DNA of 38,018 nucleotides, taken from assembly GCA_029941645.1 (NCBI GenBank), contig JAPYSZ010000003.1, forward strand, positions 1 to 38,018, written 5' to 3'. Numbering within the stretch: the stretch's first letter is position 1; each line of letters begins with the position of its first letter. This DNA is from Candidatus Poseidoniia archaeon. Its GTDB lineage: Archaea; Thermoplasmatota; Poseidoniia; MGIII; CG-Epi1. The notes beneath the pieces were generated by a model that was not told where the DNA came from, did no database searches, and saw only the letters and a program-made list of their open reading frames with translations. Position numbers and translations under genes: made by a program. Below, piece by piece: positions 19,148 through 31,526 of this stretch.

Positions 19148-19957
19148 TTAGTATTCTTCTTCATTATTTGGGAACTCTTTGTTCTTTACATCTTTACAAT
19201 ATCGTTCGATTGCATTGTTAATATCATCAAAGAGATTCAAATATCTGCGTAGGAAACGCGGATTAAATTCATGAGTCATTCCTAACATATCGTGTAGAAC
19301 AAGGACTTGCCCATCAACATCAGCTCCAGCTCCAATTCCTATAATTGGTATGTTTACTGATTTGGCTACTTTTTTTGCCAATTGTGCCGGTATTTTTTCC
19401 AATACGATTGAGAAGCATCCAGCTTTCTCTAAAAATTTAGCATCCTCCACTAATTTTTTAGCTTCTGCATTTTCTTTTGCTCTGACTGTATATGTTCCGA
19501 ACTTATAAATTGACTGAGGTGTTAAACCGAGATGTCCCATAACTGGGATTCCTGCAGTAAGAATTCTTTCAATCGAATCTATTACTTCTGATCCTCCTTC
19601 TAATTTGACAGCATGAGCACCTGATTCTTTCATTATTCTAATTGATGAGCGGAGAGCTTTTTTTGAGTCACCTTGGTAAGAACCAAACGGTAAGTCAATA
19701 ACAATTAGTGATCTTTTTGCAGCCCTTACTACCGATGACGCATGATATATCATATTATCTAAAGTAATAGGTAATGTGGTTTCATGGCCAGCCATTACAT
19801 TTGATGCAGAGTCTCCAACTAATATCACATCAACACCAGCATTATCTACAATTTTAGCCAGTGTGTAATCATAGGCTGTTAACATAGTAATCTTTTCTCC
19901 ATTGTTTTTCATTTCTTGGAGAACATTGGTTGTTATTCTTTTGTAATTTGGGCCCAT
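19148..19957 (-). CDS. panB: 3-methyl-2-oxobutanoate hydroxymethyltransferase (ketopantoate hydroxymethyltransferase)
   Basis: 269 aa. MLTAYDY, ILVGDS, DLPFGSY, VKLEGG and GHLGLTPQS. Confidence 0.93.
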
Positions 19958-20050
19958 GGCATTACCTTTTCCGGGGTCTAGCCATCCAGAGCTGACTAGT
20001 TATTATTTGCCATTTATTGAATCAAAATTAGGTGCATTTACCCGAACTCT

Positions 20051-20058
20051 TTTAATAG
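20051..20058 (+). promoter_or_regulatory. Candidate TATA box for the nuo operon
   Basis: TTTTAATA lies 15-21 nt upstream of in-frame GTG codons at 20073/20079. It sits in the 120-bp AT-rich divergent panB/nuoA region. Confidence 0.35.
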
Positions 20059-20072
20059 GGTTTGACAACAGG

Positions 20073-20438
20073 GTGTTCGTGCTGGGAGACGAGTACGTTC
20101 CTATAGGGATTTTTGCGCTTATTGCGCTTTCATTTCCTGTAATGACATTTTTCATCGGAAGGTTCTTCCGACCCCATAATGACAATGCTCTAAAAAATTC
20201 AACATATGAGTGTGGCGAGGTGCCTGTAGGTGAAGCTCATATACAATTTCATTTCCAATATTATATGTTTGCAATTTTGTTTGTGGTGTTTGATTTAGTC
20301 GTTGTATTCCTAATACTTTGGGTACAAGTATATCTTGACTTAGCAATAGCAGCCAAAGTTGTGATGTTGTTATTTTTACTTTTAACATTATTGGGGTTAT
20401 GGTATGCTTTTAGAAAGGAGGATGTAATCTGGATATGA
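20073..20438 (+). CDS. nuoA: NADH-quinone oxidoreductase (complex I) subunit A
   Basis: YECGE...FHFQYYMFAILFVVFDL is the NuoA/ND3 signature. The ORF-track start 19956 shares its ATG with the divergent panB ATG (CCATGG) and adds 39 non-homologous residues. GTG 20073 or 20079 gives the usual roughly 120-aa protein. Confidence 0.8.
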   Translation: MFVLGDEYVPIGIFALIALSFPVMTFFIGRFFRPHNDNALKNSTYECGEVPVGEAHIQFHFQYYMFAILFVVFDLVVVFLILWVQVYLDLAIAAKVVMLLFLLLTLLGLWYAFRKEDVIWI

Positions 20439-21076
20439 GTTCTAAAGGCGTACGTGGCAATCCAAGCCTTAGAAGAGGTGTCGGTTCTAAAACTACAGAT
20501 TCTGAAAAAATAATGGAAGATCCACCAGCGGGTGATTGGTTAGCATTAAGGTCGGATCAGTTACTCAAATGGATTGATGATGCCGTCTATAATGCAGCTG
20601 AAGCAACAGGTATGCGAGAGGTTGTTGACCGTGTTACACGGCCAATTTTTAATTATGCTCAAAGATTTTCACCTCATCCTTTGCACTTTGGTATAATGTG
20701 TTGTGCCATTGAAATGGGTCAGGCATCAGCTCCAGATCATGATATTGATAGATTAGGTTTGGTCTACCGTTCATCTCCAAGACAGTGTGATATTTTGATA
20801 GTCAATGGCCCCGTCTGTGAAAAATTAAGACCTAAATTGAAGACATTATACGAACAAATGCCTGAGCCGAAGTGGGTAATTGCCATGGGTGAATGCGCAA
20901 TCTCAGGAGGTCCATATTGGGATTCCTATTCTGTTGTTGCAGGTGCAGATACATTTATGCCCGTTGATGTTTACATACCAGGTTGTCCCGTCCGTCCAGA
21001 GGCTTTAATGCATGGTTTTCTAACTTTACAAAAGAAAATTAGAGAGAAAGAGCCAGGTATGTTTCTGAGGAGGTAA
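20435..21076 (+). CDS. nuoB: Complex I subunit B (N2 cluster) with an N-terminal extension of roughly 65 aa
   Basis: FGIMCCAIEM, MGECAISGGPY and IPGCPVRPE supply the four N2 cysteines. GGAGG Shine-Dalgarno; ATGA overlap with nuoA. Confidence 0.92.
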   Translation: MSSKGVRGNPSLRRGVGSKTTDSEKIMEDPPAGDWLALRSDQLLKWIDDAVYNAAEATGMREVVDRVTRPIFNYAQRFSPHPLHFGIMCCAIEMGQASAPDHDIDRLGLVYRSSPRQCDILIVNGPVCEKLRPKLKTLYEQMPEPKWVIAMGECAISGGPYWDSYSVVAGADTFMPVDVYIPGCPVRPEALMHGFLTLQKKIREKEPGMFLRR

Positions 21077-21078
21077 TT

Positions 21079-21558
21079 ATGGAGATAACTTCCTTTAAGC
21101 AGAAATTATCATCCTGTGAGGGTGTTACTGAAGTTTCAGTAATTAGAGATAATGTTGTTAAGTTAAATTTAGGAAATAAAGAATCTAAGGATTTTTTTAT
21201 TAAGTTAAGAGAAGATTATGGTTTTGAGCATTGTTCTTTAATCACTGCGATAGATAACCAACCCGAATTCGAATTAGTTTATCACTTTTCAGCAATAAAT
21301 GGTTCAGTTTTTGTTAAAAACAGCCCCTCTGCAGTAATGGTAGAGGTGCATGTATTTTTAGAACGGGACACGCCTACTATTGAATCCATTTCAGATCTAT
21401 GGGGTGGCGCTAATTGGCATGAAAGAGAGGCTTTTGATATGATGGGGATTTATTTTATTGGGCATCCTGACCTGCGTAGAGTACTTCTACCAGAGGGATT
21501 TGCTGGTCATCCATTAAGAAAGGATTACGTGTATGAGATACACGAGGAGGAGTGGTAA
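21079..21558 (+). CDS. nuoC: Complex I subunit C
   Basis: 159 aa. ANWHEREAFDMMGIYFIGHPDLRR is the NuoC/30-kDa signature. GAGGAGG Shine-Dalgarno. Confidence 0.9.
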   Translation: MEITSFKQKLSSCEGVTEVSVIRDNVVKLNLGNKESKDFFIKLREDYGFEHCSLITAIDNQPEFELVYHFSAINGSVFVKNSPSAVMVEVHVFLERDTPTIESISDLWGGANWHEREAFDMMGIYFIGHPDLRRVLLPEGFAGHPLRKDYVYEIHEEEW

Positions 21559-22652
21559 TGGCTGAAATGTGGATTAGTATGGGTCCTCAGCATCCTATGA
21601 CTCATGGGTTATGGACATTAAAAGTCAAAGTTGATGGAGAAACTATTGTTGATGCAGATCCTGAACTCGGCTATCTCCATCGGTCGGTGGAAAAGATGGG
21701 TGAACGTAGAAAGTATTTCATGAATACTACACTAACTGATAGGTTGTGTTATGCTAGTTCAACAACCTGGACCCATTGTTATGTCAATACAGTAGAAGAA
21801 TTAATGAAGGTAGAAGTTCCCCAGAGGGCAAAGTACATTCGTACAATTATGCTAGAATTACAGAGGCTTGCGTCTCATTTAATGTGGGCTGGTGCTTACA
21901 TGCCTGATTTAGGTCATATTACGGGGGCCTTGTATTTTTGGAGAGATAGAGAATTATTTTTGAATTTATTAGAAGCTCCAAGTGGTAGCCGTTTGTTGTA
22001 TAATTACATAAGGATTGGTGGTGTTAAGAGAGATTTACCTGATGGTTTTGAGGCTAAAACAGAACGAGTTATGAAATTGTTTGAGCAGAGATTAGATGAA
22101 TACGCTGATCTTTTTGAAAATTCTAAAATATTTAGAATGCGTACTGAGGATGTTGGAAAGTTCACAGCTTCACAAGCACAGAATTTGGGAATAACAGGAC
22201 CTAATCTAAGGGGTTGTGGTACTAAATTTGATTTGAGAAAACATGATGCTTATGAGATATATGATGAAGTTGATTGGGATATTCAAACTAGAGAAGCTGG
22301 CCCTGGATATGGTGATTGTTTCAGTAGATATATGGTAAGAATAGATGAAATGAAGGAATCAGTCCGTATTATACGTGATTGTTTCAAGAAAATGCCAGCA
22401 GGTCCAACGCTAGCGTCACAAATCCCCGTTCGTGCACAGGGAGAAGCATTTAGGCGTACTGAAGATTCTAGAGGTGAAGCTCTCATGTATGTTGTTGGTG
22501 ACGGTTCAGATAGGCCTTACAGATGGAAAATAAAGAGCCCGATGTTTACTACAATTTCAGCATGTCCTCATTATCTTAAAGGCTACAAAGTTGCAGACAT
22601 CCCTGCTATAATGGGAAGTATTGACATTTGTATAGGAGAGACAGACAAATGA
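21558..22652 (+). CDS. nuoD: Complex I subunit D
   Basis: MGPQHPMTHG, LGYLHRSVEKMGE, plus a C-terminal GSIDICIGETD(K). ATG 21558 (TAATG overlap) is preferred over the ORF-track GTG 21552. Confidence 0.92.
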   Translation: MAEMWISMGPQHPMTHGLWTLKVKVDGETIVDADPELGYLHRSVEKMGERRKYFMNTTLTDRLCYASSTTWTHCYVNTVEELMKVEVPQRAKYIRTIMLELQRLASHLMWAGAYMPDLGHITGALYFWRDRELFLNLLEAPSGSRLLYNYIRIGGVKRDLPDGFEAKTERVMKLFEQRLDEYADLFENSKIFRMRTEDVGKFTASQAQNLGITGPNLRGCGTKFDLRKHDAYEIYDEVDWDIQTREAGPGYGDCFSRYMVRIDEMKESVRIIRDCFKKMPAGPTLASQIPVRAQGEAFRRTEDSRGEALMYVVGDGSDRPYRWKIKSPMFTTISACPHYLKGYKVADIPAIMGSIDICIGETDK

Positions 22653-23881
22653 GTTTGTTCAGCTTCTGTAAATGGATGGCCGAGTGGACTGCTCAAAAGA
22701 TGCTTATACCTATATTTGAGTTTCAAGAGGGTTTGTTCCCTCCATTTACTAATCCAGCAGGTTCAATTGCGGATTGGTTAGGAACTGATGGCGGTATTAC
22801 GACACTAGCTTGGCTGTACGCAGTTAATATTGCATTTGCAGTGGGAATGACGAATCTGATTTTAGTTATACACTTAGAAAGAAAGATAGCTGCGCGTATC
22901 CAAGATCGTCGAGGGCCGATGCTTTCTTTCCGTTCATTTAGAGAGTTGGGTGAGGACTTAGCAGGTAGTGCACCTTCATGGAAATTTAAGGAGAATTATG
23001 CAGGTATAGGTATCCTTCAGAATCTGGCTGATGGTATCAAAGCAATTGCTAAGGAATTGATTGTCCCTGCTAAAGCGGATAAATTTCTCTTCACAATGGG
23101 TCCTATTATTTTCATTTCATCATCAGTATTTTTGTTAGTTCTTTTTCCTTTATCTGATAGATTTGCAGCTTCTTCAGCTCCTGCAGGTTTGATGGTGATT
23201 ATGGCTGCATTTTCAATTGCACCTATTGGAGTTTTAACTTCTGGTTGGGCTTCCAATAATAAGTATTCAATGATTGGAGGTATGCGTTCAGCAGCTCAGC
23301 TCATGTCATATGAAATTCCTTTGTTGCTGAGTATGGCTGGTGTCTTTCTCATGGCTGGTTCTTATGACCCTGTGGTTATTGTAGAACAGCAGCAAGCATC
23401 TTCTTGGTTCTTTGGGATTCCAATTTGGAATTTCATACCGCAGTTTATAGGTTTTATAGTATTTATGATATGTATTCTAGCTGAAGTTGAAAGGGTTCCT
23501 TTTGATCTTCCTGAAGCTGAAGCTGAATTAGTTGAAGGATGGACTACTGAATACAGTGGAATAAGATATATGTTCTTCTTGATGGCAGAATATATTCGAG
23601 GTTTTGCAGGTGCGGCGGTTGCTACGATTTTATTCTTAGGTGGTTGGGCAGGGCCTTGGCCAATTCCTCCAGAAATTTGGTTTTTAACTAAAGTCTATTT
23701 GATAATAATTTTCTGGATTTTTATTAGATGGTCTGTTCCTAGAATAAGGACCGATCAAATTTTAGAACTCGGATGGAAAAAATTATTGCCTTTATCATTA
23801 ATAAACCTTCTAATCGTAATATTTATGGTTGAGATTTACCCTTATTTTTCAGAAATAGTTAGCCTTCCGGAGGTATTCTAA
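22649..23881 (+). CDS. nuoH: Complex I subunit H with an N-terminal extension and a loop insertion
   Basis: ERKIAARIQDRRGP...LQNLADGIKAIAKE, EVERVPFDLPEAEAELVEGW.TEYSG and RWSVPRIRTDQ. ATG 22649 (ATGA overlap with nuoD) is preferred over 22628. Confidence 0.9.
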   Translation: MSLFSFCKWMAEWTAQKMLIPIFEFQEGLFPPFTNPAGSIADWLGTDGGITTLAWLYAVNIAFAVGMTNLILVIHLERKIAARIQDRRGPMLSFRSFRELGEDLAGSAPSWKFKENYAGIGILQNLADGIKAIAKELIVPAKADKFLFTMGPIIFISSSVFLLVLFPLSDRFAASSAPAGLMVIMAAFSIAPIGVLTSGWASNNKYSMIGGMRSAAQLMSYEIPLLLSMAGVFLMAGSYDPVVIVEQQQASSWFFGIPIWNFIPQFIGFIVFMICILAEVERVPFDLPEAEAELVEGWTTEYSGIRYMFFLMAEYIRGFAGAAVATILFLGGWAGPWPIPPEIWFLTKVYLIIIFWIFIRWSVPRIRTDQILELGWKKLLPLSLINLLIVIFMVEIYPYFSEIVSLPEVF

Positions 23882-23882
23882 A

Positions 23883-24659
23883 ATGAAGAGTGAAAGAGAC
23901 CTTGGCATAATGGATATAATTGTAAATCCAATGAAAGTTACCTTAAAACAGTTTTTCAAGTCAACATTTGGCAAACCTACAACAGTAATGTATCCTCTTG
24001 AAAAAAGAGCTCCGCCCCCTACCTATAGAGGTATGAATGCTGTAATCTGGGATCTTTGTATTGGATGTGGCATATGTGGTGAAGTTTGTCCTAATAAATG
24101 TTTGAAGATGAAACCTGTCGATTTATCGGATGAAGAGCAGGACAAGGCTTGGTATGGTTCACACTTAGCTAAGAGGAAAAGTAAGGCTGAACGACCTGCA
24201 ATTAATTTTGGTCATTGTATGTTTTGTGGTTTTTGTGAGGACTATTGCCCTACTGGTGCCATGACAATGACGGATTTTTATGAATTAGCAGACACAACGC
24301 GTGAGGGTTTGATTTATCCTGCAAGATCTATGAAAGTTGATTTAGAAGACGCTCCTCAATTACCACTTACAAATTATATGATGGAATCTCCTGTTTTAGA
24401 TGCAGATCCTTGTATTGGCTGTAGTAAATGTGTGGATAATTGTCCTACTAATTGTATTATTATGGATCTAGGTCCACAAAATAAGAAAATGAAGAGTGGC
24501 AAAGTTCGAAATGTAGAAAATCCTTACTTTGATTATACTATTTGTATTGGCTGTTCAACTTGTGTTAAGGTATGTCCTGCAGACTGTTTGCATATGGAAC
24601 CTATTAGCAATTCTAGTTCCAGTGGTTTAAGTGAGGAGGGTGCTTCTAACGAGGCTTGA
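23883..24659 (+). CDS. nuoI: Complex I subunit I (2x[4Fe-4S]) fused to an additional C-terminal 2x[4Fe-4S] ferredoxin domain
   Basis: 258 aa with four CxxCxxCxxxCP motifs: CIGCGICGEVCP, CMFCGFCEDYCP, CIGCSKCVDNCP and CIGCSTCVKVCP. Canonical NuoI has two. Confidence 0.9.
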   Translation: MKSERDLGIMDIIVNPMKVTLKQFFKSTFGKPTTVMYPLEKRAPPPTYRGMNAVIWDLCIGCGICGEVCPNKCLKMKPVDLSDEEQDKAWYGSHLAKRKSKAERPAINFGHCMFCGFCEDYCPTGAMTMTDFYELADTTREGLIYPARSMKVDLEDAPQLPLTNYMMESPVLDADPCIGCSKCVDNCPTNCIIMDLGPQNKKMKSGKVRNVENPYFDYTICIGCSTCVKVCPADCLHMEPISNSSSSGLSEEGASNEA

Positions 24660-24928
24660 TATTTTTGGCTTTAGATCTCCTTGTTTTCTGGTTTTTAGCC
24701 GGTTTAATCTTAGCTGCAGCTTGGGCAGTGGTTAATGGGAACGATATTGTTCACTCAGTCGTTTGGTTATCTACTGTATTTCTTTTGACAGCAGGCCTAT
24801 TCATTTTGGCAGAGGCTGAGTTTTTAGCAGTTATTCAGGTTTTAGTCTATGTGGGTGCTATTTCGGTTGTTATAATTTTTGGAATTATGCTAACTAAAAG
24901 AACGTTGAAGGGAGGAGAAGATGTCTAA
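24656..24928 (+). CDS. nuoJ: Complex I subunit J, N-terminal part (TM1-3)
   Basis: 90 aa. AEAEFLAVIQVLVYVGAISVVIIFGIML is the NuoJ/ND6 TM3 signature. TTG start overlaps the nuoI TGA. Confidence 0.85.
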   Translation: MIFLALDLLVFWFLAGLILAAAWAVVNGNDIVHSVVWLSTVFLLTAGLFILAEAEFLAVIQVLVYVGAISVVIIFGIMLTKRTLKGGEDV

Positions 24929-25709
24929 CCGTACAGTAATTTGGGTTCGGGATGCCTTAGTGATATTTTTTTCATTTTATGTTGTTTTTGCTGTAGCTTC
25001 TGTTCCGTGGGCTAATCTGAAAGTTTCCCCTCCTCTTCCAGAGACTTGTGAAACGGGTTGTCCACCTGTAGTTAGCTTTCCAGAAAATGGATATTATCAT
25101 TATCAGAATTCTGTTACTTTTGAGTGGAGTTCAGTTTCTGTTGGTTACAGAATTGTAGTTACTGAAGTTGATACTGGCGATGTAAAAATGGATAAGAATA
25201 TAACTAATGAAGTAACTTCAACAACGTCTAGATTACCAGCAGGTACTTATCTTACAAGAGTATATTATACGGGAATTGCAGGTTCAACATTTAGCACATA
25301 TCCTATATTAAAATCTGAATTTGTAACTATTGAAACTTCTTCAAAGATTACTATGGTTTGGCCTGAGGTTAGTGTAACTTATGGTTTAGAAATTAGGGTT
25401 ATTAAGGAGGCGGAAAATGAATTGCCTGAAATTGTTAAAGTCTATGAAGTTAATATGTTAGAGGAATCATCCTACACTTATTCTGATTTTGAAAATGGTA
25501 AATCTTATTCTTGGTCAGTTTATGTCCAGGATTCAAAAGGATATACTTCGGCGTCATCTCCTTTTCATGTAGTTAATATAGATACTACTAAATTTTTGGC
25601 TTTTGAACTTTTTAATAATTGGGAAGTCCCTTTCATTCTTTTAGGAGTTATGATGGTTATAGCAATGCAAGCAGGTGTTTTTCTGGCAAGGGAGGAACTA
25701 AATGATTGA
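24921..25709 (+). CDS. nuoJ: Complex I subunit J, C-terminal part (TM4 + TM5), with a soluble tandem-repeat insertion of roughly 190 aa between the helices
   Basis: 262 aa. N-terminal TM (VIFFSFYVVFAVASV). C-terminal LAFELFNNWEVPFILLGVMMVIAMQAGVFLAREE resembles the NuoJ C-terminus. The middle holds two roughly 85-aa repeats (VTFEWSSVSVGYRIVV... and ITMVWPEVSVTYGLEIRV...). GGGAGG Shine-Dalgarno; 8-nt overlap with the upstream ORF. Confidence 0.75.
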   Translation: MSNRTVIWVRDALVIFFSFYVVFAVASVPWANLKVSPPLPETCETGCPPVVSFPENGYYHYQNSVTFEWSSVSVGYRIVVTEVDTGDVKMDKNITNEVTSTTSRLPAGTYLTRVYYTGIAGSTFSTYPILKSEFVTIETSSKITMVWPEVSVTYGLEIRVIKEAENELPEIVKVYEVNMLEESSYTYSDFENGKSYSWSVYVQDSKGYTSASSPFHVVNIDTTKFLAFELFNNWEVPFILLGVMMVIAMQAGVFLAREELND

Positions 25710-26004
25710 TCCAATTAATTTTGTTGTATTCTCTTCTATTTTATTGCTGATTGGAGCATATGGAGTAATTCGAAATAAGAATGCTATTGTTGTTTTGATG
25801 TCTGTTGAAATAATGCTTACAGCAGCCAACGTAAATTTTATAGCTTTTTCAAGCTTTTACAATGATTTATCAGGTCAAATAGTTGCGTTATTCGTTACAA
25901 CAATTGCTGCGGCTGAAGTTGCAATAGGTTTGGCAATATTGTTGAGTTTGTTTAAACAAAGAGATACTATTGAGTTAGATTTACTGAATAGTTTGAGGTG
26001 GTAA
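25702..26004 (+). CDS. nuoK: Complex I subunit K
   Basis: 100 aa, 3 TM. LMSVEIMLTAANVNF and TIAAAEVAIGLAILL carry the conserved Glu residues. Confidence 0.92.
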   Translation: MIDPINFVVFSSILLLIGAYGVIRNKNAIVVLMSVEIMLTAANVNFIAFSSFYNDLSGQIVALFVTTIAAAEVAIGLAILLSLFKQRDTIELDLLNSLRW

Positions 26005-26005
26005 A

Positions 26006-28186
26006 ATGTCAAATAATGATAATCAAAATTCTGAATCTGACTTGTTGAGGTTTATTTCATTAAGTTTGGCAGCTTCACTTATTCTGTTTTATTTTTCTAC
26101 AGATGGTTTGGCAGATGATTTCGTTAGTGTAGCTTGGATGATTCCTGTTTTTCCTATTGTTTCATTCGTGGCAATTTTGTTATTTGGGCACATGGATTCA
26201 AGAAAAGGTGGTTCTTTTGCTCTAGCAGGTATTGGTTTATCTGCAGTATTTTCTTTAGCCATTGCCTACGATGTTCTGATACAAAATTCATTACATGGAG
26301 AGTATGTAGAATCAACTAGAACTTGGTTTAGTGGTGCGACTTATTCTTTTGATTTTGGTACGTATGTTGATGCCTTAGCTGCGTTGTTGTTGTTAGTAGT
26401 CGGTTTGGTTTCCTATCTTGTCATTGTTTTTTCAACAAGTTATATGGAGGAAGAAGGCGATCGCCAAGTAAGATACTTTGCAGAAATTTCTCTTTTCGTT
26501 GGAGTTATGCTCGGTTTGGTCGTAGCAAATTCATTCTTATTAATGTTTATTTTCTGGGAGTTAGTTGGTGTTTGTTCTTATCTTCTAATTGGTTTCTGGT
26601 ATGAGAAGCCATCCGCAGCTTCGGCAGCTAAAAAGGCGTTTTTGGTTACACGAGTAGGTGATGTGTTTTTGCTGATGGGGTTAGTTATACTATACAGTAC
26701 ATTCGGTACACTTAGATATTCAGAATTGTTCGATAACCCTGAAGATTTAGCAGCTAATGCTACAGAATTGAAATGGGCTACACTTTGTATATTCGGTGGT
26801 GCTGTTGGCAAATCGGCTCAATTTCCGTTACATGTATGGCTTCCAGACGCCATGGAAGGCCCTACTACAGTATCAGCACTGATACATGCTGCAACGATGG
26901 TCAAGGCTGGTGTTTTTTTGGTTGCTCGAGCTTATCCTTTGATTGTTCATAGTCCTGATACAGCAATTTACATTGCAGTAACGGGGGGTGTTACAGCATT
27001 CATCGCAGCTAGCATGGCTATGGTGATGTATGATATCAAAAGGGTTCTCGCTTATTCGACAATTTCTCAATTGGGGTATATGTTCCTTGCATTAGGTACA
27101 GGCGCTTGGGCTGTCTGGCATGCTGCAGAAAATGGAATAGAAGATCATGCTCAAGGGTATACTGCAGGTTTATTCCATTTGATGAATCATGCATTTTTCA
27201 AGGCTTTACTTTTCCTTGGTTCTGGTGCTGTTATACATTCAGTACACACTCAGGATATGCGAGAGATGGGTGGTTTACGCAAAGGTATGCCCATTACATC
27301 TGCGGCTATGGGTTTGGGTGTTCTTTCCATTGCTGGAGTTCCATTTTTCTCAGGTTTTTGGTCTAAGGATGAGATTCTTGAAGCAGTTCATCATAATTCC
27401 GAGGCAGAAGGTATTTTCGGTATATTGTGGTGGCTTGCACTGTTGACTGCAGCCATGACGGCTTTCTATATGACTCGATTATGGATGATGACTTTCAGTG
27501 GTCCGGAAAATCGTGTTGTTGAAGAAATGGTAGAGTCTAAAGACCATGCTGAAACGGGTAATTGGGAACTCAAGTCAAAGACGATTAAGTCCCATGCGCA
27601 CGAGGCACCTCTTGCTATGACTGCACCTCTTATGATTTTAGCTTCTCTTGCCGTCTTTTCTGGATTTTCGTTATTCCTTGGTGAGGGTTTTGGATCTAGA
27701 GTGTATTATGGCCATCATGCAGATTCTGAGTCTATGATTCAATGGTCTATCTTAGATCATATTCTAACATCATCTTTGACTTATCTTTCAGTTATTGTTG
27801 GTTTGAGTGGTGTTACTTTGGGTTATTTGTTCTATAAACGTGATTCTGAAGGTCAAACTACTTTCTCACCAGCGTTTGTAGAATCTTTTGCTGTAACCAG
27901 TTACTTGCATGTTTTTCTTTCGAATAGACTTTACATGTCAAAATTTTTTGATTGGTTTGGTATGAGAACCTGGGATACTGTTGCTAGGGCATGTGATTGG
28001 TTTGATATTTACATCATTGACGGTATAGTGAATGGTGTGGCTTCAGCTTCACAGTTTTTCAGTAGTCAAGTGAGAAAACTTAACTCAGGTTTTACAGGTC
28101 ATTATGCTTCACTTACAGTTGGTGGTTTGGGAGCTCTTGTAGTTATTACTAGAATAATAATGCCCTTTATGGGATGGTCACTATGA
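26006..28186 (+). CDS. nuoL: Complex I subunit L (antiporter-like, long C-terminal lateral helix region) with an extra N-terminal hydrophobic segment
   Basis: 726 aa. WELVGVCSYLLIGFWY, GKSAQFPLHVWLPDAMEGPT.VSALIHAATMV, AYSTISQLGYMF and HAFFKALLFL. GAGGTGG Shine-Dalgarno. Confidence 0.93.
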   Translation: MSNNDNQNSESDLLRFISLSLAASLILFYFSTDGLADDFVSVAWMIPVFPIVSFVAILLFGHMDSRKGGSFALAGIGLSAVFSLAIAYDVLIQNSLHGEYVESTRTWFSGATYSFDFGTYVDALAALLLLVVGLVSYLVIVFSTSYMEEEGDRQVRYFAEISLFVGVMLGLVVANSFLLMFIFWELVGVCSYLLIGFWYEKPSAASAAKKAFLVTRVGDVFLLMGLVILYSTFGTLRYSELFDNPEDLAANATELKWATLCIFGGAVGKSAQFPLHVWLPDAMEGPTTVSALIHAATMVKAGVFLVARAYPLIVHSPDTAIYIAVTGGVTAFIAASMAMVMYDIKRVLAYSTISQLGYMFLALGTGAWAVWHAAENGIEDHAQGYTAGLFHLMNHAFFKALLFLGSGAVIHSVHTQDMREMGGLRKGMPITSAAMGLGVLSIAGVPFFSGFWSKDEILEAVHHNSEAEGIFGILWWLALLTAAMTAFYMTRLWMMTFSGPENRVVEEMVESKDHAETGNWELKSKTIKSHAHEAPLAMTAPLMILASLAVFSGFSLFLGEGFGSRVYYGHHADSESMIQWSILDHILTSSLTYLSVIVGLSGVTLGYLFYKRDSEGQTTFSPAFVESFAVTSYLHVFLSNRLYMSKFFDWFGMRTWDTVARACDWFDIYIIDGIVNGVASASQFFSSQVRKLNSGFTGHYASLTVGGLGALVVITRIIMPFMGWSL

Positions 28187-30036
28187 GATACTTTTTTGCC
28201 TTGTTATTAGTTATACTTTTACTTCCTGTAGCCTCAGGCGAGGATCATACTGTGATGGTTGGAACTGAATCTGATACTTATGTTTTCAGTCCTGCCGTTC
28301 TTAAAATTTCACCAGGTGATAATGTGACATTTCTCTGGACGCCAGGTATGCCTCATAATGTAGCCGAAGTCGAGAATTCTGAATCTTTAACTTACAACGA
28401 CGGATTCCGTTCTGGTGAACCTCAAGACGGAGGTGAATGGGCACTTCCATCTAATTTGACTGCAGAAGATGGAACACTCTATTACGTATGTGAACCGCAT
28501 GCAGGAATGAAGATGCGAGGAGAAATCATCATTCAGAGTGCTCCTGAAATCGCTATGGAATTTGGGGACTTTCCTTGGCTTTCTTATCTATTGGTTTTCC
28601 CTCTAATAGGTGCCTTATGGACCTTTGGTTTTAGAGAAAATACTAATGCGCCAAGAATCATAGCATTATTTACAACTTTATTCACATTGATTATTTCAAT
28701 TATTGTATTTGTAAAAACAGGAAATAAGTCTGGATATAGTTTGATGGAGCAATATGATTGGGCCCCTAATTTTGGTATTTCATTACTTCTTGGAGTTGAT
28801 GGTCTTAGTTCGCCAATGGTTTTGTTAACAGGTATAATAGGACCTTTAACGGTTATATTTGCTTGGCATGAGAAAGAGAAACCAGCTTTGTTCTTCGTAC
28901 TTCTCTTAGTTATGCAAACAGCTCTTTTTGGTGTGTTTATTACTCTAGATTATTTTGTTTTCTATATATTTTGGGAGATTGTTTTGATACCAATGTTTTT
29001 CCTTATAGCCATTTGGGGTGGGGATAATCGACGCTATGCCTCAATTAAATTTTTCATTTACACTTTTACAGCATCACTAGTAATGTTAATTGGATTTATG
29101 GCACTTTATTTCGAAACAGGTGGTGAAACTTTTTCTATGATAGAAATAGCTAAGCAAAATGGCAATTTTTCTGAAGATTTTCAAAAGTGGGTTTTTGCAG
29201 CTTTATTTATTGGATTTGCAGTTAAGATTCCTTCAGTACCTTGGCACACTTGGTTGCCAGACGCTCATGTTGAGGCACCTACAGCAGGATCTATCCTTCT
29301 AGCAGGAGTCATGCTGAAAATGGGACTTTATGGTCTTATTCGTGCTGCTTTACCAGTTGTACCGCTTGGGGCTGAATATTTTGTTCCAGTTATGGTTGTT
29401 TTAGCTATAGTTTCCATACTTTACGGAGCGGCATTAAGTCTGGGTCAGACAGATTTAAAGAAATTAGTTGCATATTCTAGTGTTTCTCATATGGGTGTGG
29501 CGTTATTGGGTGTAGCTACAATGACCGAATTGGGTCTAGCAGGTGCAGTTTTCATGATGTTTGCCCACGGTATTCTAAGCCCAGCCATGTTTATGGTTGC
29601 AGGAGTTCTTTTGCATCAAGTAGGAACAAGAGACATTCCAAAACTAGGGGGTCTTGCTAAACATCAACCTAATACTGCTGGAATCTTTGTTGTTATATTC
29701 TTGGGAAGTCTTGGTCTTCCAGGTATGGCTGTTTTCGTTGCAGAATTAGCTGTTTTTATTGCTTTCTTCCAGTCTCATGGTTATTGGTTGCTTCTTCCTA
29801 TATTTGGTATGGTGCTTACTGCAGGTTATCATTTATGGGCATTACAGAGGGCCGTATTCGGAGTGGATAGTGAACAAATAGATATGTCTGATGTTCATGA
29901 GGCACCATGGTATGAAATGTACCCTATGTTTTCTATTATCCTATTAGCAGTTTTCTTTGGTATATTTCCGCATTATCTTATGGATCCTATATCTGTAGCA
30001 TGTTATGACATCTTGAATTTTATGGGGGCTATCTAA
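28183..30036 (+). CDS. nuoM: Complex I subunit M with an N-terminal signal peptide + cupredoxin (type-1 copper) domain fusion
   Basis: N-terminus MRYFFALLLVILLLPVASG, then ...PGDNVTFLWTPGMPHNV...YYVCEPHAGMKM (His, Cys-x2-His-x2-Met). The NuoM core follows: FWEIVLIPMF, KIPSVPWHTWLPDAHVEAPT.GSILLAGV.LK and AYSSVSHMG. ATG 28183 (ATGA overlap with nuoL) is preferred over 28174. Confidence 0.9.
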   Translation: MRYFFALLLVILLLPVASGEDHTVMVGTESDTYVFSPAVLKISPGDNVTFLWTPGMPHNVAEVENSESLTYNDGFRSGEPQDGGEWALPSNLTAEDGTLYYVCEPHAGMKMRGEIIIQSAPEIAMEFGDFPWLSYLLVFPLIGALWTFGFRENTNAPRIIALFTTLFTLIISIIVFVKTGNKSGYSLMEQYDWAPNFGISLLLGVDGLSSPMVLLTGIIGPLTVIFAWHEKEKPALFFVLLLVMQTALFGVFITLDYFVFYIFWEIVLIPMFFLIAIWGGDNRRYASIKFFIYTFTASLVMLIGFMALYFETGGETFSMIEIAKQNGNFSEDFQKWVFAALFIGFAVKIPSVPWHTWLPDAHVEAPTAGSILLAGVMLKMGLYGLIRAALPVVPLGAEYFVPVMVVLAIVSILYGAALSLGQTDLKKLVAYSSVSHMGVALLGVATMTELGLAGAVFMMFAHGILSPAMFMVAGVLLHQVGTRDIPKLGGLAKHQPNTAGIFVVIFLGSLGLPGMAVFVAELAVFIAFFQSHGYWLLLPIFGMVLTAGYHLWALQRAVFGVDSEQIDMSDVHEAPWYEMYPMFSIILLAVFFGIFPHYLMDPISVACYDILNFMGAI

Positions 30037-31526
30037 TGGACGATTCTATCTTCTTTTTGCCTGAAATATTGATGGTAGTGAGTATAATAGGTATTCCAGC
30101 CCTTTATATTTTGACAGAGAATAATAAGTCATATTCCATATGTTCTAATATTTCTTTAGGTTTTGCATTCATGTTTTTAGTTCTTTCATGGTATTACCCT
30201 GATTTCTTATCGTTAGATAAAAGTGGTTTGGTATCCTATGATCATTTTAGAGTAGATGATTTTTCTCAATTATTCAAGATTATCTTTGTTTTAACAGCTT
30301 TAGTAGTTTCTATTGTAAGTACTTCTTACTTTGATGATGAAGAGCCTCATCAAGCTGAGTATTACACACTCCTTCTTTCCAGTACTTTGGGAATGCTGGT
30401 TGTTGCCTCAGCTACTGATTTCTTAACTCTGTTTTTGGGAATAGAAATATCTGCGTTTAGCAGTTATGCAATGGTTGCTTTTAGAAAACAGGATGATAAA
30501 TCAACGGAAGCTGGAGCAAAATATCTTTTGATTGGTGCATTTTCTTCAGGTTTAACTCTTTATGGCATTTCATTATTGTATGCTATTACTGGTTCTTTGA
30601 CATTTGATGGTGTTAGTTCATTTATGCACGGAATTAGCAATGGAGTTGTTGTTGGAGATTTTACTGAAGTAATATTTATTTCTTGTTTGTTCATAATGGC
30701 AGGTTTAGGTTTTAAGATAGCAGTAGTTCCATTCCATGCTTGGGCTCCTGATGTTTATCAGGGAGCACCTACGCCAGTTACTACTCTTCTTGCTGCTGCC
30801 AGTAAGGCGATGGGTTTCATTGCAGTTTTTAGAGTATTTGCGTTTACTTTAGAATCAGTTTCAGAGGAATGGAAATTAGTTTTGGGAATTATTGCTTTAG
30901 CTTCTATGACTGTAGGTAATTTGGCAGCTATCTCACAGAAGGATATTGGGAGAATGTTGGCATATTCTTCAATTGCTCAAGCTGGTTATATTATGATTGC
31001 AATTCCAGCTCTTACTGAAGAAGCAATGTCCGGTGCTATTGCTCATACATTAGTACATGCATTTATGAAAGGTGGAGCCTTTGTCATAGTTGGATGTATA
31101 GGGGCGGTAGGTTTGGGTTATAATTTGGAATCATATAAGGGATTGGCAAAGAGATCCCCGTTGTTAGCACTTTCAATGACAGTTTGTTTACTATCTTTGG
31201 TTGGTATACCTCCTTTTGCAGGTTTTATTAGTAAATTTTTCTTATTCTATGGAACTTTACAGGCAGGGCTTGCTGGAGAATCTTGGATTATTGCTTTGGT
31301 AATTGGAGGAATTCTAAATTCAGCATTGTCTCTCTATTATTATTTGAAAGTTATAAGATATATGTATCTCTATGATCCCGAAGATTCGGGCGAGGTTGAG
31401 TTCCCTAATTCAGTTAGGTACATCTCCTTTGGAGTAATTCTGTTATTAGCAGTATTCTTCCCATTATATTGGGAATCTCTTTTTGAACTTTGTAAGGAAG
31501 CTTCAATAGCTTTGATTAATGGATGA
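30036..31526 (+). CDS. nuoN: Complex I subunit N
   Basis: 496 aa. GIEISAFSSYAMVAF, FKIAVVPFHAWAPDVYQGAPTPVT and AYSSIAQAGY. TAATG overlap with nuoM. Confidence 0.92.
   Translation: MDDSIFFLPEILMVVSIIGIPALYILTENNKSYSICSNISLGFAFMFLVLSWYYPDFLSLDKSGLVSYDHFRVDDFSQLFKIIFVLTALVVSIVSTSYFDDEEPHQAEYYTLLLSSTLGMLVVASATDFLTLFLGIEISAFSSYAMVAFRKQDDKSTEAGAKYLLIGAFSSGLTLYGISLLYAITGSLTFDGVSSFMHGISNGVVVGDFTEVIFISCLFIMAGLGFKIAVVPFHAWAPDVYQGAPTPVTTLLAAASKAMGFIAVFRVFAFTLESVSEEWKLVLGIIALASMTVGNLAAISQKDIGRMLAYSSIAQAGYIMIAIPALTEEAMSGAIAHTLVHAFMKGGAFVIVGCIGAVGLGYNLESYKGLAKRSPLLALSMTVCLLSLVGIPPFAGFISKFFLFYGTLQAGLAGESWIIALVIGGILNSALSLYYYLKVIRYMYLYDPEDSGEVEFPNSVRYISFGVILLLAVFFPLYWESLFELCKEASIALING

Follow-up and report, generated by a model that had tools for sequence, protein, structure and literature searches.

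A second ferredoxin domain fused to subunit I of an archaeal complex I as a candidate port of electron entry

The way in which an 11-subunit complex I is fed without NuoEFG is a long-standing question for archaea, many bacteria and the chloroplast-type enzymes. It is raised again by the window analysed here, i.e. the whole stretch of 38,018 nucleotides from a Candidatus Poseidoniia archaeon of the MGIII lineage, in which such an enzyme is encoded with an unusually long subunit I. The contig that carries it is part of a 1.07-Mb genome (90.5% complete), and the genes, other than nuoI, are arranged as follows.

19956-31526, plus strand: nuoA-B-C-D-H-I-J(split)-K-L-M-N operon, assigned from ORFs and from Pfam matches for NuoB, C, D, J and M
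19956-20438, plus strand: nuoA
20435-21076, plus strand: nuoB
21079-21558, plus strand: nuoC
21552-22652, plus strand: nuoD
22628-23881, plus strand: nuoH
24656-24928 and 24921-25709, plus strand: nuoJ, split in two frames
25702-26004, plus strand: nuoK
26006-28186, plus strand: nuoL
28174-30036, plus strand: nuoM
30036-31526, plus strand: nuoN

The operon is tightly packed, with nuoI flanked by nuoH and nuoJ, and it codes for an 11-subunit complex-I-type enzyme; its neighbours are panB and a polyprenyl synthase gene. A cupredoxin carried on NuoM and an ectodomain in NuoJ are additional features of the MGIII operon. Whereas the 14-subunit NADH:quinone oxidoreductase and the F420H2 dehydrogenase possess an input module, either NuoEFG or FpoF, none of nuoE, nuoF, nuoG and fpoF is found in the nuo operon, and the genome as a whole is devoid of NuoF and FpoF. 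Indeed, neither PF01512 (NuoF) nor PF04432 (FpoF/FrhB) matches in this genome; of 18 genomes from its genus, 17 lack the former and all 18 the latter. The absence of NuoEFG that an earlier note on this DNA had claimed is thus borne out for the operon and, as regards NuoF, for the genome.

The nuoI product contains four CxxCxxCxxxCP motifs, all complete, and can be divided into a core, a linker, an extra domain and a tail.

23883-24659, plus strand: nuoI, open ORF of 258 aa plus stop, with a GGAGG site upstream
24018-24287, plus strand: canonical NuoI ferredoxin core with motifs 1 and 2 (aa 46-135), from TIGR01971 and from alignment to solved NuoI/Nqo9/TYKY chains
24057-24092, plus strand: motif 1, CIGCGICGEVCP (aa 59-70)
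24216-24251, plus strand: motif 2, CMFCGFCEDYCP (aa 112-123)
24288-24389, plus strand: linker from the core to the extra domain (aa 136-169), moderately conserved, pLDDT 78-91
24390-24602, plus strand: predicted extra 2x[4Fe-4S] ferredoxin domain with motifs 3 and 4 (aa 170-240), from a PorD_KorD-like match
24411-24446, plus strand: motif 3, CIGCSKCVDNCP (aa 177-188)
24456-24530, plus strand: basic beta-hairpin between motifs 3 and 4 (aa 192-216), with DSSP strands at aa 192-202 and 208-216
24543-24578, plus strand: motif 4, CIGCSTCVKVCP (aa 221-232)
24612-24656, plus strand: Ser/Glu-rich C-terminal tail (aa 244-258), disordered and lineage-specific

Four stretches of the protein are matched by Pfam Fer4 (E 3e-23), and nuoI is the sole ORF with four motifs among the nine of the 1.07-Mb genome that carry a CxxCxxCxxxCP motif. 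The NCBIfam model of NuoI (TIGR01971) matches aa 24-147 with 138.7 bits (cut-off 113.05), the core cysteines are invariant in 105 aligned sequences, and motifs 1 and 2 are separated by a long spacer, as in NuoI. By homology, these two motifs would supply the ligands of clusters N6a and N6b. The earlier note, which had counted four motifs, assigned the first two to N6a and N6b and placed the third from nucleotide 24411, proves accurate on these points. The likeness to canonical NuoI/Nqo9/TYKY (NDUFS8)/NdhI covers the N-terminal 150 aa, the two motifs with their long spacer, the fold and the position between nuoH and nuoJ; the canonical subunit has one ferredoxin domain with two clusters, whereas the window NuoI has around 100 more residues and a second dicluster domain. 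This second domain is matched by TIGR02179 (PorD_KorD) over aa 166-239 only (68.3 bits, cut-off 60.05). Judged from its sequence, the window NuoI is a canonical two-cluster connecting subunit fused to a second, PorD-like 2x[4Fe-4S] ferredoxin domain, which very probably binds [4Fe-4S] clusters. An internal duplication of the NuoI core was considered as a possible origin of this domain; the two share generic ferredoxin similarity alone (27% identity).

The length of the extension, put at about 110 aa including a Ser/Glu-rich tail in the earlier note, depends on the reference. Position 24330 corresponds to codon 150, immediately past the end of the TIGR01971 match, the alignment with Thermus Nqo9 spans aa 24-155 of the window protein, and the net extension relative to canonical NuoI ranges from about 70 to about 110 aa. 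The two-cluster domain and the tail are real features of the protein, but the tail is disordered (pLDDT <50) and unconserved, with a top-residue frequency of 0.21 and 45% gaps.

A single-chain AlphaFold2 model was built on 105 aligned full-length relatives, of which 91 share less than 50% identity with the query. The model (mean pLDDT 85, pTM 0.73) comprises an N-terminal helix (aa 9-29), the NuoI core, an ordered linker, the second ferredoxin domain and the disordered tail. The extra domain is predicted as a compact unit spanning aa 168-240 with a pLDDT of about 88-95. In the linker region, the conserved residues are E134/A136 just upstream, R140, and then P170. The hairpin of the window NuoI has a net charge of +3 and contains the near-invariant K207; the family mean for the loop at aa 196-216 is +1.9. 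When the model is compared with the PDB by Foldseek, all matches are NuoI/TYKY/NdhI/HycF chains that cover about 150-165 residues of the model, with a TM-score normalised to the query of at most 0.40. As all these matches are NuoI-sized, no solved complex I contains the four-cluster form.

The long subunit I is widespread. A profile search recovered 1379 proteins at E<=1e-10, and most of the best 120 measure 235-305 aa with a query coverage of at least 85%; the relatives bear generic names, either "4Fe-4S binding protein" or "NuoI". In a sample of 301 genomes from the whole phylum, eight families have full-length matches, and those found elsewhere are shorter. Proteins of 235-305 aa from Thermoplasmata and Methanomassiliicoccales match over the full length at 33-45% identity. 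At most loci examined, the long form is encoded in the order nuoABCDHIJKLMN; in one soil Thermoplasmata lineage, a nuoB-nuoI pair stands apart from the remaining nuo genes, and its four-cluster nuoI adjoins a gene for an FAD-linked oxidase. Over 105 sequences, the eight cysteines of the extra domain are all invariant or at least 90% conserved, and the mean conservation, expressed as top-residue frequency, reaches 0.61 for aa 170-240 versus 0.59 for the core. The extra domain is thus as conserved as the core. In Ferroplasma and other Thermoplasmatales-type nuo operons, NuoI is short (157-180 aa) and has two motifs. Four clusters are the rule for subunit I in one large Thermoplasmatota clade, to which all the Methanomassiliicoccales FpoI examined belong.

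Other unusual frames were met around NuoI. In the high-GC genomes of four loci (L093, L095-L097), long open frames were rejected as artefacts of stop-poor sequence rather than fusions. At another locus (L092), NuoH is genuinely fused to a NuoI of the short type.

In the literature searched, extra clusters in NuoI/FpoI are nowhere mentioned, and no study of a four-cluster subunit I by biochemical or structural means was found; Lang 2015 (PMC4309702) and Welte & Deppenmeier 2011 (PMC3133127) lie outside that search. The extension singled out in the earlier note is not special to this organism; it is common and standard within its Thermoplasmatota clade, and no characterisation of it was found in that literature. 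As far as can be told, the four-cluster subunit I is common in one archaeal clade and uncharacterised.

In a maximum-likelihood tree of NuoD, with hydrogenase-like clusters as the outgroup, all the complexes with a four-cluster subunit I, including that of the window, form one clade (97/90), and the nuo operons with a short NuoI form a separate one (100/99). A single change suffices to explain the four-cluster trait on this tree in 97% of the bootstrap trees, which is consistent with a single gain of the extra domain. The trait does not strictly follow the loss of NuoEFG, a co-variation that the earlier note proposed to check. A NuoF-like gene is found in 3 of 57 sampled genomes of the long-form families, never beside nuo, versus 45 of the 99 genomes with a short NuoI-like match alone, a difference (Fisher p = 3e-8) confounded by phylogeny, by hydrogenase-type NuoI-like matches and by NuoF-like genes belonging to other enzymes. 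The other 54 of these 99 genomes have no NuoF-like gene, and confirmed short-NuoI nuo operons without NuoEFG occur in Thermoplasmatales and others. Because many short-NuoI nuo operons equally lack a NuoF-like gene, the extension was rejected as a strict substitute for NuoEFG; together with the confounding, this makes it a clade trait and not a general consequence of N-module loss. Since such short-NuoI operons without NuoEFG exist, a headless complex can do without the extra domain.

The four-cluster clade includes cultured methanogens. Exact-sequence matches were obtained to AGN25606.1 (Ca. Methanomassiliicoccus intestinalis), AGI84956.1 (Ca. Methanomethylophilus alvi) and WP_019176178.1 (M. 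luminyensis), each with four motifs, and the best 120 relatives of the M. intestinalis protein all measure 229-262 aa. In Ca. M. intestinalis and Ca. M. alvi, the four-cluster genes are placed in the order fpoABCDHIJKLMN. In Borrel 2014 (PMC4153887), the genes of the three proteins appear under fpoI of the Fpo-like complex. The likeness of these FpoI to the window NuoI lies in the four-cluster architecture, an identity of 33-39% along almost the whole protein, the operon order and the NuoD clade. They differ in that their hosts are strict anaerobes, the Ser/Glu tail is missing and HdrD, not quinone, is the presumed acceptor (PMC7374477); as for the operons, the cupredoxin and the ectodomain mentioned above are extra in MGIII relative to the Methanomassiliicoccales fpo genes. 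According to a review (PMC7374477) that cites Kröninger et al. 2016 and 2019 (see also PMC7886697), the "headless" Fpo complex of M. luminyensis oxidises reduced ferredoxin with proton translocation, data that concern the whole membrane system rather than the extra domain. The analogy with ferredoxin-dependent Fpo-type complexes drawn in the earlier note is strengthened, since the complex reported to oxidise ferredoxin contains an orthologous four-cluster FpoI. The alignment to archaeal FpoI/NuoI and polyferredoxins proposed in the earlier note gave counterparts, i.e. four-cluster orthologues in Methanomassiliicoccales FpoI, and single dicluster units of MvhB and FwdF that align to the extra domain.

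Outside this clade, the resemblances are partial. With PorD/KorD, RnfB and the polyferredoxins MvhB and FwdF, the likeness is at the domain level alone, and the extra domain of the window NuoI is found without any 2-oxoacid:ferredoxin oxidoreductase (OFOR), Rnf or hydrogenase context; the fit of the whole model to FwdF is poor (TM ~0.2). The PorD/KorD delta subunit is free-standing and encoded with the alpha, beta and gamma subunits of OFOR, whereas here the domain is fused in NuoI and the OFOR genes are on other contigs (C105 and C79). In formate hydrogenlyase, HycB acts as an extra ferredoxin-like wire to HycF, a NuoI homologue, and homologous chains are present among the matches. Ferredoxin docks on NdhI of cyanobacterial NDH-1 (6l7o) and on MbhN/MbsN (6u8y), so that low-potential electrons reach a NuoI homologue there too. 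In all three systems the wire or donor is a separate polypeptide, unlike in the window, where it is fused to subunit I.

The most direct pointer to a function comes from a sister family. Locus L039, from a genome (G019) of the same order as that of the window, has the same nuo operon with, at the same position, a nuoI coding for 710 aa. The first 200 residues of this protein, through motif 3, are 61% identical to the window protein, and its C-terminal end, ...NPFFDYTICIGCASCVTACPTDCLSMEAI, is the counterpart of motif 4. Between motifs 3 and 4, and more precisely between ...MDTGP and NPFFDY..., a module of about 480 aa replaces the hairpin. The module contains Fer4_20 and Pyr_redox_2 domains, scores 463 bits to PRK12771 ("NAD(P)-binding protein") and has as its closest structures NfnA/StnC of Bfu-type Nfn/Stn transhydrogenases (9bov, 9n5u, 8oh5) and NfnB (5jca). 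NfnA, StnC and NfnB likewise have a GltD-like module between two ferredoxin half-motifs. The flanking segments are orthologous to the extra domain of the window NuoI, so that both proteins consist of a NuoI core plus an extra ferredoxin domain, split in L039 by the insert. By these sequence comparisons, what has been spliced into the surface hairpin of the extra domain is an entire NAD(P)H flavoprotein of the NfnB/GltD-like type. Up to seven contigs from four sources carry the fused protein, which is therefore not a chimera. Among the best 150 matches to it in a library of 1.84 billion representatives, none is end-to-end except its own representative, and many cover just the split ferredoxin and flavoprotein part. 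In the NuoD tree, the L039 lineage is sister to the four-cluster MGIII family and nested inside the four-cluster clade, which makes a derived insertion the simplest reading.

The wiring of an NAD(P)H flavoprotein into the extra domain is strong circumstantial evidence for a domain that faces outward and hands electrons on to N6a, and the splice thereby points to the extra domain as the site of electron entry. The window NuoI itself has neither the Pyr_redox_2 nor the Fer4_20 module of L039, and a separately encoded GltD-like partner was rejected since no GltD-like gene matches in the genome at E<=1e-10. Lacking both the flavoprotein module and such a gene, the window protein cannot oxidise NAD(P)H by itself.

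What, then, would feed the extra domain in MGIII? The genome has two POR_N matches (on contigs C105 and C79), corresponding to 2-oxoacid:ferredoxin oxidoreductases of the two-subunit type; POR_N is found in just 6 of 18 genomes of the same genus, which are incomplete MAGs. Two ORFs (contigs C25 and C52) have a zinc-containing ferredoxin model as their best match, below its cut-off, and code for very acidic proteins with net charges of -18 and -15. The charge complementarity between the basic hairpin and these zinc-ferredoxin-like proteins is only suggestive. Direct docking of a 2-oxoacid:ferredoxin oxidoreductase onto the extension, one of the donors proposed in the earlier note, finds no support; for ferredoxin as the donor in MGIII, the chances are about even.

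A route through the protein can be proposed. In the 2x[4Fe-4S] ferredoxin topology, the last cysteine of the second motif ligates the cluster held by the first three cysteines of the first motif. In the Thermus structure, the cluster ligated by the last cysteine of motif 2 is presumably N6a, the outer cluster, to which NuoG passes electrons. As this cysteine would ligate N6a, the chain would leave the core beside N6a and run via the conserved linker into the extra domain. One extra cluster would have C177, C180, C183 and C231 as its ligands, and the other C221, C224, C227 and C187. The two would lengthen the chain outward from N6a, presumably within electron-transfer distance of it, on the face that NuoG holds in the 14-subunit complex I. 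Reduced ferredoxin made by 2-oxoacid:ferredoxin oxidoreductase would dock near the basic hairpin of the extra domain, and electrons would then flow from the second extra cluster to the first, to N6a, N6b, N2 and finally quinone, with the transfer to quinone coupled to proton pumping.

The extra domain is hence viewed, with somewhat more confidence than doubt, as a built-in entry port from reduced ferredoxin to quinone for an otherwise headless enzyme, and an on-pathway role of its clusters is probable. An electron-input role is supported by three independent lines, namely the single gain and retention of the domain, the flavoprotein splice in the sister family and the orthologous FpoI within a complex reported to oxidise ferredoxin. 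The electron entry wire envisaged in the earlier note thus gains a conserved two-cluster module and these three lines in its favour; it is the best reading available and keeps the status of an inference.

According to a first alternative, which is unlikely, the extra domain would be a socket for a dedicated dehydrogenase partner (a flavoprotein, or an HdrD-like or GlcD-like protein) and electrons would enter from this bound partner instead of free ferredoxin. The sister family, where an NfnB/GltD-like NAD(P)H module is physically joined to the domain, fits such a socket, as do the FAD-linked oxidase gene beside the soil Thermoplasmata nuoB-nuoI pair and the proposal that Fpo-like complexes work with HdrD and/or GlcD (PMC7374477). 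However, a GltD-like gene is lacking in the genome at E<=1e-10, no candidate partner gene lies in or beside the operon, whose neighbours are panB and the polyprenyl synthase gene, and the partner would have to vary between lineages despite the conserved domain.

Even less probable is a wire working in reverse, in which the proton-motive force would drive electron transfer from quinol to a low-potential acceptor, ferredoxin or another, or in which electrons would exit to HdrD in methanogens. Complex I is reversible in principle. Moreover, with HdrD rather than quinone as the presumed acceptor of the Methanomassiliicoccales Fpo-like complex (PMC7374477), the extra cluster pair could serve there as an exit. 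However, MGIII encodes 2-oxoacid oxidoreductases that reduce ferredoxin, so that a ferredoxin sink is needed rather than a source, the GltD/NfnB-type insert of the sister family suits the oxidation of NAD(P)H feeding the chain, and the domain is conserved across lineages with very different acceptors. Similarly improbable are clusters lying off the main pathway, as does N7 of NuoG, a conserved off-pathway cluster of complex I, within a mainly structural domain that would shield N6a from solvent or oxygen or aid assembly: short-NuoI headless complexes do function without the domain, but anaerobic methanogens and aerobic archaea of sea and soil alike retain its eight ligands and hairpin, and the recruitment of a redox flavoprotein precisely into it would make little sense for a dead-end cap.

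A broader and more tentative view can be put forward, which is less likely than not. The four-cluster subunit I would define a distinct monophyletic class of complex I whose fused ferredoxin "head" is a universal socket, accepting free ferredoxin in MGIII and Methanomassiliicoccales and carrying a spliced NAD(P)H flavoprotein in the sister family. The latter enzyme would then be a self-contained NAD(P)H:quinone oxidoreductase, and its head an N-module invented independently of NuoEFG, FpoF and NdhS/V/O.

A conserved fused two-cluster domain, apparently gained once, offers a concrete and testable entry site in a clade that spans abundant marine heterotrophs, soil archaea and cultured gut methanogens, and the sister lineage with its spliced NAD(P)H flavoprotein is a natural experiment pointing to the same site. 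If this reading is true, the "headless" Fpo-like complexes would not be headless, and ferredoxin-linked catabolism by 2-oxoacid oxidoreductases would feed a proton-pumping respiratory chain directly.

Beyond subunit I, two further subunits encoded by the operon of the window depart from a plain layout, and the 1.07-Mb genome holding it carries a second zinc-ferredoxin-like gene on another contig, C52.

Window 28174-28545: N-terminal part of NuoM, comprising a signal-like segment and a copper domain of the plastocyanin type (PF00127, E 1e-11)
Window 24656-25709: NuoJ, present as two separate ORFs
C52:1497-2141: second zinc-ferredoxin-like gene

The second of the NuoJ ORFs includes a large insert with a weak match to the Ig-like domain Big_13. 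The product of the C52 gene bears an extension of about 100 aa, whose terminal CxxC...CxxC pairs are similar to a zinc ribbon.

The following loci have fused subunits or another gene layout.

L092:2211-4322 (genome G096, family f23): single 704-aa frame that fuses NuoH to a NuoI of the short, two-cluster type
L047:7586-10813 (soil Thermoplasmata): nuoB-nuoI pair, with similar pairs in L041, L045, L050, L067 and L077-L079

The NuoH-NuoI frame ends in a long charged C-terminal tail, and its lineage is the sister of the four-cluster clade in the NuoD tree. In the soil loci, nuoB lies directly 5' of a four-cluster nuoI, with no further nuo genes within 10 kb; the pair is flanked by an FAD-linked oxidase (GlcD-like) gene immediately upstream and by metE downstream. 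Two other operons with a four-cluster NuoI, from Thermoplasmata MAGs (L046 and L058), have nuoA-nuoB divergent from nuoC onwards and include nuoM in two copies. In families f3 and f4, which belong to the class of the window outside the MGIII order and are presumably Marine Group II, matches to NuoI were weak (E about 1e-9) or none, suggesting that the Nuo-type complex is missing altogether from these genomes.

In two loci a flavoprotein forms part of the NuoI or NuoI-like protein.

L039:9974-12103 (G019:C15:34962-37091; sister family in the order of the window genome): 710-aa nuoI
L094:1864-3759 (G050, family f14): 632-aa frame with three motifs, in which a GltD-like flavoprotein is fused to a NuoI-like core

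In the 710-aa protein, an entire NAD(P)H flavoprotein of the NfnB/GltD-like kind, made up of Fer4_20 and Pyr_redox_2, splits the extra ferredoxin domain between motifs 3 and 4. Among its best 150 matches from 1.84 billion representative proteins, only its own representative matched end to end. In the L094 fusion, located on a short contig, the flavoprotein is joined directly to the core without this split-ferredoxin arrangement.

Six motifs in all are found in the relative P0015, a 305-aa JGI metagenome protein of alignment A1, the two additional ones (CxxCxxCxxxC-type) standing within the hairpin and at the C-terminal end. This layout suggests that in some lineages subunit I carries polyferredoxin-like wires of even greater length.
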